Positions 306 through 62,473 of a DNA stretch of 64,000 nucleotides are shown piece by piece (the stretch's first letter is position 1; each line of letters opens with the position of its first letter). A program made the translations under genes and the position numbers. The notes below the pieces were generated by a model that did not search any database, was not told where the DNA came from, and was given only the letters and a program-made list of their open reading frames with translations. The DNA comes from Eledone cirrhosa (lineage: Eukaryota): the NCBI GenBank assembly GCA_964016885.1, contig OZ024752.1, forward strand, positions 30,566,001 to 30,630,000. Reading direction: 5' to 3'.

Positions 306-370
306 TATTTTATTATATATATTTCAAGGGCAACCAAGGCATTCTTGGTGCGCTTTCATCAGATAAAATA
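306..370 (-). ncRNA. Type I minimal hammerhead ribozyme (family B)
   Basis: Minus strand: tattttat-CTGATGA-aagcgcaccaag/cttggttgccctt-GAAA-tatata-TA-ataaaata; perfect 8-bp stem I and intact core. Confidence 0.8.
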
Positions 371-899
371 CAAGATTTGTTTTATAAATATTGACATAAC
401 CGTGGAAACACAACCTTGACGGTTGAAAGTTCACTGGATAGTGAATATATATAGCAGCGATTCTTTGCTTAAACTTTAATCTGTTATTTTAATAAATATA
501 GATGTATATATATATATGTATATATATATATATATATATATATATATATATATATATATATACACACATATAGGTGTGTGTATATATATATATACATATA
601 GGTATATATATGTATGTATGTATATATATATATATGTGTGTGTGTGTGTGGTATTTCATAACTTCACAGTTATAAGATTCAGATCTTATATGTAATTTTT
701 TTAAATTCAATTTTTAAGTGTTCCATTAACGTTTCATTACAGTCTTTCTAATGGGTTTCGTATTTCAATTAATTTTGAAAATAACCAAATATTACTTAGG
801 AAACATTTCTAAAATAAAATTTGACGAAACGTTTTTTTATATAAGGATAAACATTTTAAAAGGAGCATTTTTTCCTCCTAAATCCAGGGCTGTTTGATA

Positions 900-1110
900 T
901 AATAATAATAATGAAAATTATTGTGTACAATGCTCAGGTGCTCTACAACTCATCAAAGGTGCATGTATAGTGCACAGAATAATGTACAAATGTCAGGAAA
1001 GTGAACAGTGTATGAGTCATGATATACACACAGTTACACACATGCGTGCATGTGTATGGAGGGGGAATATCAGGTGTAGTGTTGGTGAATTTCGAGAAGC
1101 ATAGAAGTTT
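900..1110 (-). mobile_element. 3' end of an interspersed retroelement (unclassified)
   Basis: Homologous in inverse orientation to 24385-24750; ends in an (ATT)n-like tail. Confidence 0.5.
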
Positions 1111-2587
1111 GGAAAAGGGTTAAGTCCATCCTATTTATTCATAGCTTGTTAAGTTAGTGAAGAGTGGTGTATTACTTAATGAATTAATTAATTAATTAAT
1201 TAATTAAGATACTCTTTAGTCATGTATTTAATGAGATATGTGACTCAAATAGAAGGAGAAGTAGTTAATTTAGCCCCTCGTTAGTCATTTACTTACAACT
1301 AGATTCATTTTTCTCCCTAAGATGTTTAATGTTCGTAAATAAAAGCAAAATAACTTCACACTGGAATTATAAACTAGTCATAAGCCATAAGCTCTTCTAG
1401 CTACAATTTTTGCCATTTCTCTATAATGTCTGCAAAAAATCTTCAGCAATTTATGAAGATCAGAAAATAGAATGTTTCCTCCAATCCCCATTCTCATTCA
1501 ATCAGCCTCTTTATTGTTTAATCTTTAGCATGCTGGATTTTTTTAATGAATTGCTTCCCTTGATACTGCATTATGTATTAAGGGGAGATTACTCTATAAG
1601 CGACATAAATCACCCAGAGCGCCCAGAAAATTAAGCTAGTTCTTCTTTTGAAAAGTAGTTTAACAAATTCCTATAAACCTTAATAGATATTTCTATCTCT
1701 CTTTTATAACTGGTTCTTTATTTTACATAAATTATCAAACAATAACAATTGGCTGAAAGAATGTAATCAGAGATAAAAACAAAGTAAACAAAAGGCAGAA
1801 GACATGCAACACTTGTGGCATTGCTGTGGGTGATAGCATGGCTAAGATGCTGGAATAACCAAGCACTCTGATATATTAGTAAAGCTAGCCACCACCAACA
1901 ATGACAGGAACCATGTCATTGTCTTGAACGACACAGGTTGAAAACACAAAATAGTTTGTAATTAATTCACACTCTTCCCTGCTATCATAATATATTTGTG
2001 TTAATATTTTAAACATTCCACTACACATGAAACATTAAATACTATAATACTATATAATACTAAAGCATGTTTTGATTATTTGATAGGCATGTATAGAAAC
2101 CAAGAAATTGTTTGTGTTTTTGCACAACAAACGTGTGTTGGTTATTAAAATTATCAACATTTATTTGATTTTTCTAAATTTTACCTTTGCTACATAATTA
2201 CATAATTTTAACCAAATTCAATAACATTGATTGATTCACAATTCTAGACAAATGCAACAATCTAGTGTGGGTTTTTTTAATATTTATAATCTTTTGTTTA
2301 GTAAAAATGTCTTGTAGTTAGATTTTGTAGTGTTGATCTAATATTTTCTAGTATAAAACTATTTATTATTTTACTGAAAATTAATTTACACACTCTATTA
2401 TTTCTGATATAAAACTATTTATTATTTTATTAAAAATTAATTTAAACACTTTATACTTAAATATTTTCTTTCACAATATTATAGTGCTACATTGTTTTAT
2501 TTTATTTTACAATTTTCTCACAATTAAATTTACAATTGTGTATCTTTGAGTTGTAATGGTAATTTTCCTTTTATTCTTCTTCTTCAG

Positions 2588-2968
2588 AATGCCGTGTGGG
2601 ATTCTACAAATTGGGCAGCAAATGTGTTGCCTCTTGTCCAGTACAATATTATGGTTATGTCGAAATTGTTTCATCACATAATGGCAATACAAATAAAACA
2701 GTGGCTACTTGTCGCAAATGCCATCCAGCATGTAATAAATGTAAAGGAGGAAGAAATACTGACTGCTTTGAATGTAATTCTGGATATATTCTAGAAAATA
2801 GACAGTGTATTCCTAAGGAATTCATTGAATCTATGAACCCTTATAAATTCCTTATTTGGTTTGCATCAATTGTTGTCATGCTCTTTGTCTTTTATTGTGC
2901 GTTTAGGTTGTGTCCTCACTACCTAAAGCAACAAAAGAAGCAAAGTATTGATCAACAAACCTCTCAAG
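2588..2968 (+). CDS. Internal exon with furin-like cysteine-rich repeats and a transmembrane helix; likely furin/PCSK5-type proprotein convertase
   Basis: Acceptor ttcttcag (2587) and donor g|gtaagt (2969); 381 nt, phase 1-1; CRVGFYKLGSKCVASCP...CRKCHPACNKCKGGRNTDCFECNSGYILENRQC, then hydrophobic FLIWFASIVVMLFVFYCAF and basic juxtamembrane residues. Confidence 0.85.
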
Positions 2969-3079
2969 GTAAGTAGATGGCTTTTTACTTCATCTAAAAA
3001 TTCAATTATAAAACAGTATGTTATATGACGGTAGATTTCAGAATAAATTGAAGGCAACAATGATGTTGGTGAGTTACCT

Positions 3080-3119
3080 GTCCTAATATTTTGGGTCTAT
3101 AGACCCTTTGTCAGAAGAC
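3080..3119 (-). ncRNA. Degenerate hammerhead-like motif
   Basis: gtctt-CTGACAA-agggtc/gaccc-AAAA-tatt-aggac; stems intact, and the two core changes are CpG-type transitions from CTGACGA and CGAAA. Confidence 0.4.
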
Positions 3120-59748: not shown

Positions 59749-60058
59749 ATCAACTGAACGTTAGCTTATATAATATTAATGTAGTAATATAATAGTTGGT
59801 ACAATTCTATTGACTATCGACAAGGCAATTATTTAAATTAACTGAGGTTGATTGCTTTATCAGAAATGTATCAATCATATATAAGTGAGTTTGTTCTCTC
59901 TTCTCTCACTCACTCGTCTCCCCCACATCTCTCTCTACCTCCCTCATTCTCTCAACCTCTTTATATATATATGAATATGTATATATGTATGAATATGTAT
60001 ATATATATATGTATGAATATGTATATATATATATGTATGTATATGTATATATATATAT

Positions 60059-60253
60059 AACGAAGGAAATGTGGTAAGGAACCAGATGGACCATAACGCA
60101 CCAAAGTACTCAATACTTAGGGTAGTAGAGTGGGTAATAGGAACGAGTAGGACCCCGACGGCTGAGCTCAAGCCGTTTCGACGGCTAATTCTGGTCCAGA
60201 ATTAGCCGTCGAAACGGCTTGAGCTCAGCCGTCGGGGTCCTACTCGTTCCTAT
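60059..60253 (-). mobile_element. 5'-truncated HHR-bearing element ending in a near-perfect 117-bp palindrome
   Basis: 60137-60253 palindrome; each arm has GAAA-cggct/agccg-TC-ggggt but no CTGANGA half; (TA)n on both sides. Confidence 0.65.
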
Positions 60254-60924
60254 ATATATATATATATATATATATATATATATATAATATGTGTGTGTAT
60301 TGTGTGTATGTATAATACATGTTTATAAATTATTATTCTTCACAAAATATTTTCCACTTTGGAAGAAAAATACTCAGTGACGCCTGCTGCATGAAAACTT
60401 AATAGCAAAGTGGAGGTCAGCATACTTGATGTCATAACATAGGAAATAGTAATTAAAATCATTAAGCAGATGACTAATTCTGTCTAAAAGACGTAAGCTA
60501 CCTCAGAATTTTAATTAAATACAATTAATTATGAAATACACTGGGGAGTGACTCTGAAATTTGACAAACTCCAGGCTTCAGTCTTCTTAAACTTCTTTTA
60601 CCGTACCGCCATACCTTTAGTTTAAACGGTGGCTGTAAATATTAGATGACTAACAAGGTGTATAAGATGTATATTTGTGTGTATAAACACAGCGACGTTG
60701 TTATAACTCACGAATGACTGGGAGATGGAGCTGGGAATGAATACCTAGGGACTCAAGCTGCATGGAAACTTCATAGTAAAGTGGTGGGTGCTGGCATATA
60801 TGATGTAATAAAGCAATATACATACATCTCAATGAAATAAAATAAGATCTGTATCTGTGTCATATATATACTAGATGGCCCAGCTACCATTGGCGTGTTC
60901 TTCGGCATCCAGATATATATATAT

Positions 60925-61828
60925 ATAGCTGACGCACCTAGCTTCGCTTGGATAAACAGACGATAAGCCGTCTGTGTAGTATATTATTACTGTTGAAAAT
61001 ATATAGTATAGTATTACTGTTGAAAATATATAGTATAGTATTACTGTTGAAAATATATAGTATAGTATTACTGTTGAAAATATATAGTATAGTATTACTG
61101 TTGAAAATATATAGTATAGTATTACTGTTGAAAATATATAGTACAGTATTACTGTTGAAAATATATAGTATAGTATTACTGTTGAAAATATATAGTATAG
61201 TATTACTGTTGAAAATATATAGTACAGTATTACTGTTGAAAATATATAGTATAGTATTACTGTTGTAAATATATAGTACAGTATTACTGTTGAAAATATA
61301 TAGTATAGTATTACTGTTGAAAATATATAGTATAGTATTACTGTTGAAAATATATAGTATAGTATTACTGTTGAAAATATATAGTATAGTATTACTGTTG
61401 AAAATATATAGTATAGTATTACTGTTGTAAATATATAGTACAGTATTACTGTTGAAAATATATAGTATAGTATTACTGTTGAAAATATGTACACGTATAT
61501 ATAATTAATTAAAAGGTGGTTAGAAGCGAAGTCAATGCAGACATACAGACAGATATTATAAGGGTGCGACGGTATAGCTATGTATCTATCTAAAAAGACA
61601 GACTAAAAAAAAGAGAGAACGCTAACCGGAAGTGTTGATATTTGAACATTTTAAAGAAGTGAATGTTTAAATAAACAATAAAATATCTTTAATCTTTTAA
61701 CTAAATTTAGTAGGCAAAAATACCCTAACTTTCTTACTTGGAAAAAGTTACATCTATGGTGCTGATTGGTCCAGCCGTTTGGCGAAAAGTTTGTTACATA
61801 CATACGGCCGTCAGCTTTATAATATAGA
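60925..61828 (-). mobile_element. Non-autonomous Helitron D with an internal 27-bp satellite
   Basis: Minus strand starts A|TCtatattataaagctg; degenerate 3' hairpin ccaagcgaagctagg then CTAT; 61535-61625 homologous to 23285-23390 of Helitron A. Confidence 0.65.
60975..61490. repeat. 27-bp minisatellite, ~19 copies
   Basis: Unit tagtatagtattactgttgaaaatata. Confidence 0.95.
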
Positions 61829-62133
61829 TACATTCACACGCACACACACACATATATATACATATGTGTATGTATATATACATATGTGTATATATATATA
61901 TATACATATGTGTATATATATATATATATGCATACACATGCATACAAGATCTATCACTGACAGTTCTACAGTCAGCAGGTACCTAAGTACATGTGGGGGA
62001 GGGAGAGTACTTAGAATCGTGTGCATATATGCATATAAACATATATACATACATACCTACACACACATCAGCAGGCCCAATATATATATATATATATATA
62101 TATATATATATATATATATATATATATATATAT

Positions 62134-62473
62134 ATATAAAGAAAAAGGGATGAAATCGAAAATGCAACTGAAGTCTTATTTTTTTTTAAAATATATATAT
62201 TTATTTGGTTCCTTTACCGGTTTCGCAGTTCTTCTGCTTTTCAAAAGGTGAGTTGAGATGGAGGGTCTGTAAACCACAGACCCTCCATCTCAACTCACCT
62301 TTTGAAAAGCAGAAGAACTGCGAAACCGGTAAAGGAACCAAATAAATATATATATTTTTAAAAAAAATAAGACTTCAGTTGCATTTTCGATTTCATCCCT
62401 TTTTCTTTATACTTCCACTCGTGTAGGACACCTCGGTTATTTTTCATTTTGTAAAAAAAACCTCACTTTCTAA
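62134..62473 (+). mobile_element. Family D element with ~135-bp fold-back arms, in (TA)n
   Basis: 62134-62270 is the reverse complement of 62276-62411 (loop aaacc); 62270-62473 matches 15426-15630. Confidence 0.85.
62298..62335 (+). ncRNA. Minimal hammerhead ribozyme with U3:A8 variant core (inverse copy at 62211-62248)
   Basis: cctt-TTGAAAA-gcag-aagaa-ctgc-GAAA-ccgg-TA-aagg; palindromic stem III ACCGGU. Confidence 0.7.

Follow-up and report, generated by a model that had tools for sequence, protein, structure and literature searches.

Short hammerhead ribozyme motifs occur in a 64,000-nt stretch of the Eledone cirrhosa genome (assembly GCA_964016885.1, contig OZ024752.1, positions 30,566,001 to 30,630,000 of the forward strand; hereafter the window). 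These motifs are the ends, i.e., the pseudo-long terminal repeats (pLTRs), of protein-coding Penelope-like retrotransposons (PLEs) and not a separate non-coding class. Several coding PLE families contribute such pLTRs, and most of the short copies are probably run-off complementary DNAs (cDNAs), which were primed internally and extend to the predicted transcription start. The original prediction, made from the letters of the window, had described non-autonomous, retrozyme-like or solo-pLTR elements mobilised by the reverse transcriptase (RT)/GIY-YIG protein of PLEs into TA microsatellites. Solo pLTRs mobilised in this way agree with the present analysis, whereas a retrozyme-like, non-autonomous family does not, since the tested families are pLTRs of coding PLEs in the same genome and their copies lie head-to-head.

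Coding elements behind the hammerhead units

In six of the seven listed families, and additionally in family P, long copies enter a PLE frame for RT and GIY-YIG endonuclease (EN), and the hammerhead unit is present both behind the 3' untranslated region (UTR) and ahead of the open reading frame (ORF). Upstream of the family A unit, 1.2–1.4 kb of AT-rich UTR are preceded by a GIY-YIG-type EN and then by RT; one of the loci fetched from the genome (designated L) comprises an inverted pLTR, RT, EN, UTR and hammerhead (L075). A search for the ORF start of family A revealed the order core, tail and ATG in 6 of 30 ORF-selected loci (further loci with the tail alone), the ATG being located ~245 nt after the hammerhead core. 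Long copies of family B likewise continue into a coding PLE, and family D is represented by coding copies L342–L344, the RT pieces of families A and D being 81 % identical. For family C, an EN is within reach in 2 of 21 instances and further EN matches were found. In 18 of 30 family U loci chosen by their upstream UTR, RT/EN precedes the unit in the same orientation. A Hydra-type EN lies ~700 nt ahead of the family P unit in 16 of 24 EN-selected loci, and the window itself contains a coding copy of family G. A single frame for RT and then GIY-YIG, flanked by pLTRs (L075, L342, L344), corresponds to the organization of PLEs with a C-terminal EN.

Pfam matches comprised RVT_1 (E 5e-4, below the cut-off) and, for family U, GIY-YIG (E 2e-7, above the cut-off), and there was no Pfam match in the Hydra-type EN pieces or in P0001. 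A protein homolog search yielded 33 relatives, the two named ones being cephalopod proteins with an unrelated automatic name. The first EN upstream of family A copy L021 was rejected as the EN of family A, since it belongs to a separate element of family P. Two opposite-strand family U pairs (3.5 and 3.1 kb) were rejected as full elements and represent independent insertions. In L181 (family U), RT-coding sequence is joined straight to the pLTR, as in an internally deleted element. The 3' UTR/pLTR regions of families G and U (window 29740–29990; L191:1665–1995) share repeated modules, namely CCAAT, CACGTG/CACATG, GCGCRAAA and a TATA-like box; we take CACGTG/CACATG to be E-box-like and GCGCRAAA to be E2F-like, an arrangement presumably resembling a cell-cycle-type promoter.

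Clade affiliation and relation to known elements

Criteria for the Hydra clade given in the sections of PMC8557442 used here comprise an RWK-like motif, DKT, CxCX5C, no CCHH, and CxxC/CxH around E and N. By eye, these criteria agree with families A, B, C, D and P, the N-terminal motifs being seen for A and D only; RW(K/R), DKT and CxCX5C are present and CCHH is absent in the A–D proteins. By motif criteria, the CUGANGA families A–D and family P are thus assigned to the Hydra clade. Insertion into (TA)n and a hammerhead in the pLTR are found here as in that clade. The units of families A and D (~3.5–4 kb) exceed the size of <3 kb, which is a tendency of the clade and not a strict rule, because of their long 3' UTRs (1.0–1.8 kb). 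Families U and G, which have U3:A8 cores, carry by eye a CX4CxxC linker and a CCHH-bearing GIY-YIG, suggesting either Neptune or Nematis type.

The supplement of PMC8557442 lists Hydra-1_Obim of Octopus bimaculoides with (TA)n preference and hammerhead. This element shares RW(K/R), DKT, the CxCX5C linker, the lack of CCHH, CxxC and CxH at the EN end, the pLTR hammerhead and (TA)n with the families studied here; its protein is homologous but divergent by eye, and its hammerhead is unlike those described here. Tens of thousands of short copies and 3' UTRs of 1.0–1.8 kb also set the present families apart from the Hydra clade, and the long, promoter-like loop II found in family P has no counterpart among the Hydra hammerheads listed in PMC8557442. 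The relevant part of PMC4209133 describes single motifs, opposite-strand pairs and the U3-A8 core for PLEs. Its hammerheads resemble the present ones in the palindromic loop III, the U3-A8 core, the predominance of singles, opposite pairs 100–700 bp apart and a low predicted monomer activity, while families A–E have a stem I of 8 bp and a long, bulged stem II, and family P has a real stem III.

The literature already covers PLE pLTRs that carry hammerheads, their inverted pairs, the U3:A8 variant of the core and a Hydra element of an octopus in (TA)n. Probably new are families of a known PLE class, set apart from Hydra-1_Obim by eye, and a testable mechanistic addition. Neither the run-off reading nor a hammerhead split by a start site was found in searches, mostly of listings, of the open-access literature on Penelope pLTRs, start sites, the Hydra clade and octopus hammerheads, and the pertinent sections of two cephalopod repeat papers cite Penelope without ribozymes (PMC13282606, PMC8967140). 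The added value lies in the anatomy at very high copy number.

Fixed 5' and 3' ends of the short copies

The 5' ends of family U are located 27–43 nt upstream of the core in 31 of 51 consecutive genomic copies, compared to 18 % for the best geometric null (p ~1e-11, an optimistic value, because this interval was chosen post hoc and the two arms of a hairpin are not independent observations). Among family U copies without inverted partner, 10 of 17 end at 34–42, 7 are longer and none is shorter. In copy sets partly chosen by 3' similarity, 19 of 46 family B ends fall at 66–72 nt and 12 of 38 family A ends at 76–82 nt upstream of the core (the family A search query began 6 nt upstream of the predicted cut site). 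The 5'-end values of family D were not used, as the references came from another subfamily. One outcome named as speaking against the original prediction was that all copies are random-length 3' scraps of coding PLEs. This applies in part, as the copies are pieces of coding PLEs, yet with 5' ends in distinctly non-random positions.

The sequence context of these boundaries is promoter-like. A TATA-like box is located ~30 nt upstream of the 5' boundary in families U, C, G and P, and a TCACT-type motif coincides with the boundary in A, C, D and E. Family U has TATAAAA at -72 and CCAAT at -122 (~31 and ~81 nt before the boundary), family C TATA at -95/-97 and TCACT at -66. TATA together with TCACT is described for a rotifer pLTR in the part of PMC3846280 considered, and in that of PMC8557442 the pLTR is given as the location of transcription start for Penelope of D. 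virilis and for Chlamys. Read-derived contigs display a depth step and loose ends at the family U boundary, with the depth-bearing runs stemming from one study that may be the source of the assembly.

The 3' ends are bimodal, comprising 55 and 48 of 117 copies in A/D, 32 and 28 of 60 in B, and 34 and 53 of 91 in U. Family U hairpins consist of one tailed (tail of ~60 nt) and one untailed arm in 12 of 12 cases; an apparent '+197' 3' end of this family was rejected as an artefact of (TA)n alignment. In families A and D, each of the two 3' ends precedes a copy of one hairpin motif by 6–8 nt, and this motif is a candidate binding site of the element protein. The repeated motif beside both priming sites may thus indicate what this protein recognises, while the fixed 5' ends make the origin of pLTRs, inversions and tails accessible from sequence. 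A hairpin motif RCTC...GAGYRCT is common to the tails of six Hydra-type window elements (34804, 51511, 53276, 60131, 52667, 26318), it is repeated just after the second 3' end ahead of the ORF (L262, L344), and a similar motif is visible in coral Hydra-2_Amil in the supplement of Craig et al. (PMC8557442).

The split hammerhead of family P

In nine long family P copies (L050:2536-2630, L056, L061, L066, L070–L072, L102, L183), the type I hammerhead is complete and combines a U3:A8 core with a real stem III and stems of 5+10+5 bp; a tenth match of the regular expression was spurious. Minimum free energy folding yields stems I–III in three of four folded copies. A TATA-like box and an initiator-like motif are located within stem/loop II of the long copies. 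Among unselected family P units, 33 of 37 start at most 17 nt from the GAAA box (ungapped measure), six of them exactly at 17; these six starts correspond to an initiator-like A, 30 nt after TATTTAT, inside loop II. Since the 5' boundary falls in loop II, short copies (including the one at 60060..60251) contain half a hammerhead. Provided that the predicted start is right, family P RNA started in the pLTR would lack the core, so that only read-through RNA could cut. If true, the start-split ribozyme of family P would allow a direct test of the role of PLE hammerheads.

Proposed origin of the short copies

RNA polymerase II may start in the pLTR, 40–90 nt upstream of the hammerhead or, in family P, inside loop II. 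The RT-GIY-YIG protein would nick (TA)n and initiate cDNA synthesis downstream of the hammerhead, at one or the other of two sites; this is proposed here by analogy with the anole Poseidon element PAc, for which reverse transcription in vitro is described to start internally at two sites bounding a tail (Frangieh et al. 2024, sections of PMC11167929). Priming at the 5' set of sites would lead to a 150–280-nt product ending at the 5' end of the RNA, and fold-back at this end, or joining of two opposed cDNAs, could produce a head-to-head hairpin, both routes being conceivable as either hairpin arm can be the longer one. The template would be uncut RNA, since weak activity is predicted for the minimal ribozymes as monomers, and the monomer-type ribozyme of family P would be incomplete in pLTR-started RNA. 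Use of uncut RNA, with a product that shortens upon 5' truncation of the template, is also described for the anole PLE in these sections of PMC11167929. Two 3' ends, a tail running into the next unit, a hammerhead upstream of both and AT-rich targets are common to PAc and the present families; tails differ in being ~60–100 nt long here and in the 5' UTR instead of the ORF, and the sections concerned describe no genomic run-off copies. Most short copies, being devoid of upstream promoter elements, would be dead on arrival.

One may speculate further that strong-stop-like run-off cDNAs, not truncations, are made routinely by PLEs and account for the bulk of the tens of thousands of solo and hairpin pLTRs, that two copies of one RNA hairpin motif, conserved in Hydra elements from coral to cephalopod, set the two priming sites, and that the family P hammerhead acts as a read-through terminator sparing the template; this extended proposal is tentative and somewhat more apt to fail than to hold.

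Several observations weigh against the run-off origin or its connection to coding elements, in addition to the optimistic p value for family U, the partial selection of the A and B copy sets and the possible identity of the depth-bearing runs with the source of the assembly. About half of the A and B ends do not reach the peak, whereas 7 of 38 copies of A and 13 of 46 copies of B extend far beyond it (the lengths of such long 5' extents are lower bounds, as microsatellites interrupt the extension). A clean TATA at -30 is missing from families A, B, D and E, and the family B peak coincides with TCATAT, 20 nt upstream of the TCACT motif. The longer arm of a hairpin may be either one, a poor fit to simple fold-back, and many long copies are tailed, which requires tandem templates seen only as partial tandems. 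In six aligned family P copies, 96 % of the pairs are kept with no compensatory changes, so that the fold rests on motif and energy. No EN was found in nine family E instances, and no ORF link; family E is tied to A, C and D by 74–86 % pLTR identity. Start site and hammerhead cleavage are predictions from sequence. Finally, the family A boundary also looks like a 3' splice site. A splice acceptor as 5' boundary was rejected, since many ends include bases 5' of the AG, a common upstream exon is missing, and the AG is not present in D or in some of the A copies.

Alternatively, the short copies could be 5'-truncated PLE 3' ends, in which cDNA from the 3' pLTR halts at a preferred pause, a second-strand nick or a self-homing site near the promoter. 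Long copies are indeed clearly truncated at variable places, the corresponding part of PMC4209133 interprets lone motifs, as well as those paired on opposite strands, as truncated PLEs, and the same sequence is predicted as by run-off. The 5' ends observed here are, however, fixed, and a separate strong stop per family would always have to match the initiator/TATA spacing; moreover, the family P boundary lies beyond the 3' strand of stem II and not at stem entry, and family U has no evident hairpin at its boundary, rendering such truncation rather unlikely. The defined ends would also agree with self-propagating, SINE-like (short interspersed nuclear element) solo pLTRs copied in trans from a promoter inside the unit or in the flanking (TA)n. 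Tailed copies retain one copy of the repeated motif beside the first priming site, and the literature portions considered report a start site plus internal promoter in the D. virilis Penelope pLTR (PMC8557442) and pLTRs capable of acting in trans (PMC3846280). Nevertheless, short U and C copies are devoid of a TATA box, and each of the two U subfamily variants is represented among copies that have the upstream TATA as well as among those lacking it (8/23 and 6/11), i.e., the short copies mirror coding subfamilies. Since hairpin junctions differ between loci, hairpins appear to be made anew each time, which makes self-propagation improbable.

Animal non-LTR retrozymes, as characterized in the pertinent parts of Cervera and de la Pena (2020, PMC7229834) and Li et al. 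(2026), are also short and non-coding, with a type I hammerhead and a PLE connection, and would arise from tandem hammerhead repeats that are cut to monomers, circularised and reinserted. The unit size (150–280 bp), low GC and type I hammerheads are compatible with this origin, a preprint (10.64898/2026.07.22.740005, in part) derives retrozymes from pLTRs, and the junction in one of 30 family B copies (L129) lies 1 nt away from the cut predicted. Retrozymes are, however, defined in the passages concerned by direct tandem units (PMC7229834; preprint 10.64898/2026.07.22.740005), whereas neighbouring same-family motifs in the fetched loci, counted once per orientation and distance, form 61 head-to-head, 2 direct and 1 tail-to-tail pairs (64 in total). 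Neither of the direct pairs is a unit-length tandem, consecutive direct repeats (two or more, each with a hammerhead) are thus absent from these loci, and the head-to-head arrangement argues against tandem retrozymes. In addition, the ribozyme does not define the ends, the units show no permutation at the cut site, family P units lack the core, and coding masters exist as long copies, contrasting with a family devoid of coding capacity. A retrozyme origin is accordingly very hard to reconcile with the data.

Detection, abundance and conservation of the motifs

Motifs were scanned for in the window by regular expression and direct reading. The strict type I descriptor comprised stem I of at least 5 bp, CUGANGA, stem II, GAAA, a self-complementary loop of at most 8 nt and UH; 100 dinucleotide shuffles, made in 500-nt blocks, served as control. 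All eight type I motifs originally predicted as full were recovered. Six of them (306, 25843, 31674, 52759, 52945, 53162) pass the strict descriptor compared to 0 in 100 shuffles; as motif copies are repeats, they amount to about five independent observations. The motif at 25972 passes the relaxed descriptor only, its loop III not being self-complementary, and belongs to the same families as the strict motifs. The one at 51398 was missed by the descriptors (U.U at the stem II base) and seen by reading, and is a typical family member.

Two of the proposed U3:A8 variants (62211, 62298) also pass strictly, with 0 in 100 shuffles. The variant at 15455 is a relaxed member of its family, but with a stem I of just 3 bp. 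Those at 27375 and 30027 do exist, but GCAA replaces GAAA; this replacement is family-wide (4 of 4 independent copies seen), and the core is therefore imperfect. Of the motifs predicted as weaker, that at 34736 is a member of a repeat family with relatives elsewhere and matches a published Hydra hammerhead pattern by eye. The motif at 48916 passes the relaxed descriptor but has no second copy among 137 loci, and that at 3080 is not supported, as two core bases are absent and no second copy was found among the same loci; an imperfect inverted repeat of ~150 bp (window 3025–3180) encloses the latter motif in its loop. The claimed (TA)n flanks are present, as TA or TA-like microsatellite, at 11 of 13 displayed window elements, but not at 48916; the element containing 27375 and 30027 is TA-flanked only from its true outer ends, 27248 and 31143. 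This same element, with its broken RT-GIY-YIG frame, contradicts the supposed lack of ORFs, which holds for the short units. An Rfam scan of the window gave 291 matches, and the 150 listed include no hammerhead, being mostly microsatellite-driven microRNA matches.

Genome-wide, the 15-letter stem I and core sequence shared by families A–E has 54,292 exact matches versus 272 for the reversed control, and the 34-letter family U ribozyme 10,850 versus 0. A DNA search with the 3' part of family U gave no matches, probably since common words are skipped, while the exact pattern gave the above 10,850. Exact matches to the cores add up to ~65,000 in this genome of 3 Gb and represent short PLE pieces, which pipelines could file as SINEs, miniature inverted-repeat transposable elements or unknowns. 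The 15-letter core occurs 8 times in the window, compared to ~1.2 expected from the genome mean.

Among 216 distinct A–E instances in the fetched loci, at least 7 of 8 stem I pairs are kept in 213 (the 5' strand of stem I being fixed by the search pattern), and one of three self-complementary loops is present in 195. The sequence of stem II varies between families A–E with retention of the hairpin fold. Core boxes, stems I and II and a palindromic loop III are thus those of the minimal type I hammerhead of PLEs. Folding predicts such minimal hammerheads to be weak as monomers; their self-cleavage is putative, and predicted dimer energies do not show the formation of a catalytic dimer.

Elements in the window

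A solo pLTR of a Hydra-clade subfamily near families A/D (252..445, minus strand; 82 % identity to the family A pLTR, 76 % to D) has its 5' end at an initiator-like TCACT motif and contains the hammerhead 306–370 with a predicted cut after 314. Family A is represented by a tailed pLTR (51305..51600, plus strand; hammerhead 51398–51458, predicted cut after 51450) with a short inverted 5' piece (51305–51347), sharing 93 % identity with the pLTR ahead of the ORF in L262. Family B comprises (i) a short 3' fragment without the catalytic 5' core (25505..25582, minus strand), (ii) a hairpin (25803..26170) composed of a short arm with hammerhead 25843–25913 (minus) and a tailed arm with hammerhead 25972–26042 (plus), its junction being ~69 nt upstream of the plus core, and (iii) a longer copy (31553..32178, minus strand; 83 % identity over 615 nt to EN-bearing L127) with a tailed pLTR (hammerhead 31674–31744), ~350 nt of 3' UTR to 32093 and a short inverted arm (32104–32178).

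The family C hairpin (52581..52865; 82–83 % identity to EN-linked L240/L278) combines an inverted tail arm with an arm harbouring hammerhead 52759–52824 (plus). In the family E hairpin (52904..53357), the short arm carries hammerhead 52945–53010 (minus) and the tailed arm 53162–53227 (plus); its coding partner may be inferred from homology to A/D only. Two hairpins had escaped the original prediction, namely an E-type one starting inside the hammerhead and lacking CUGANGA (26236..26446) and that of family P (60060..60251) with the 3' half of a type I hammerhead only. The family H hairpin (34707..34866) has a Hydra-type hammerhead (34737–34777, minus) and the shared tail motif; a coding partner of family H was not found. 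The single hammerhead-like motif without second copy is located at 48914..48970 (minus strand).

Among the U3:A8 families, U contributes a tailed solo pLTR (15427..15628, plus strand; hammerhead ~15455–15491; 95 % identity to EN-linked L191) and a hairpin (62139..62472) with hammerheads 62211–62248 (minus, short arm) and 62298–62335 (plus, tailed arm). The coding PLE of family G (27248..31143, plus strand) consists of an inverted pLTR to 27834, an RT-thumb-GIY-YIG frame (27847–29016) broken by stops and frameshifts, a 3' UTR, and a 3' pLTR (29606–30133; U3:A8/GCAA motif at 30028), which is interrupted by an insertion and resumes at 31081–31143. Several PLE families are nested in one another's TA tracts (25464–26446, 52581–53357).

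Another short interspersed repeat is present in many copies, some of them as inverted pairs (143–227, 24508–25168, 36760–37727, 44626–45991, 48991–49171), and tRNA-like Rfam matches (26962–27019, 50504–50567) are part of a further repeat. Large minisatellite arrays (periods 53, 65/55, 48, 15 and 73) at 9904–13643, 17127–19915, 32194–32975, 38046–44598 and 46606–47623 account for the long open frames of the window.

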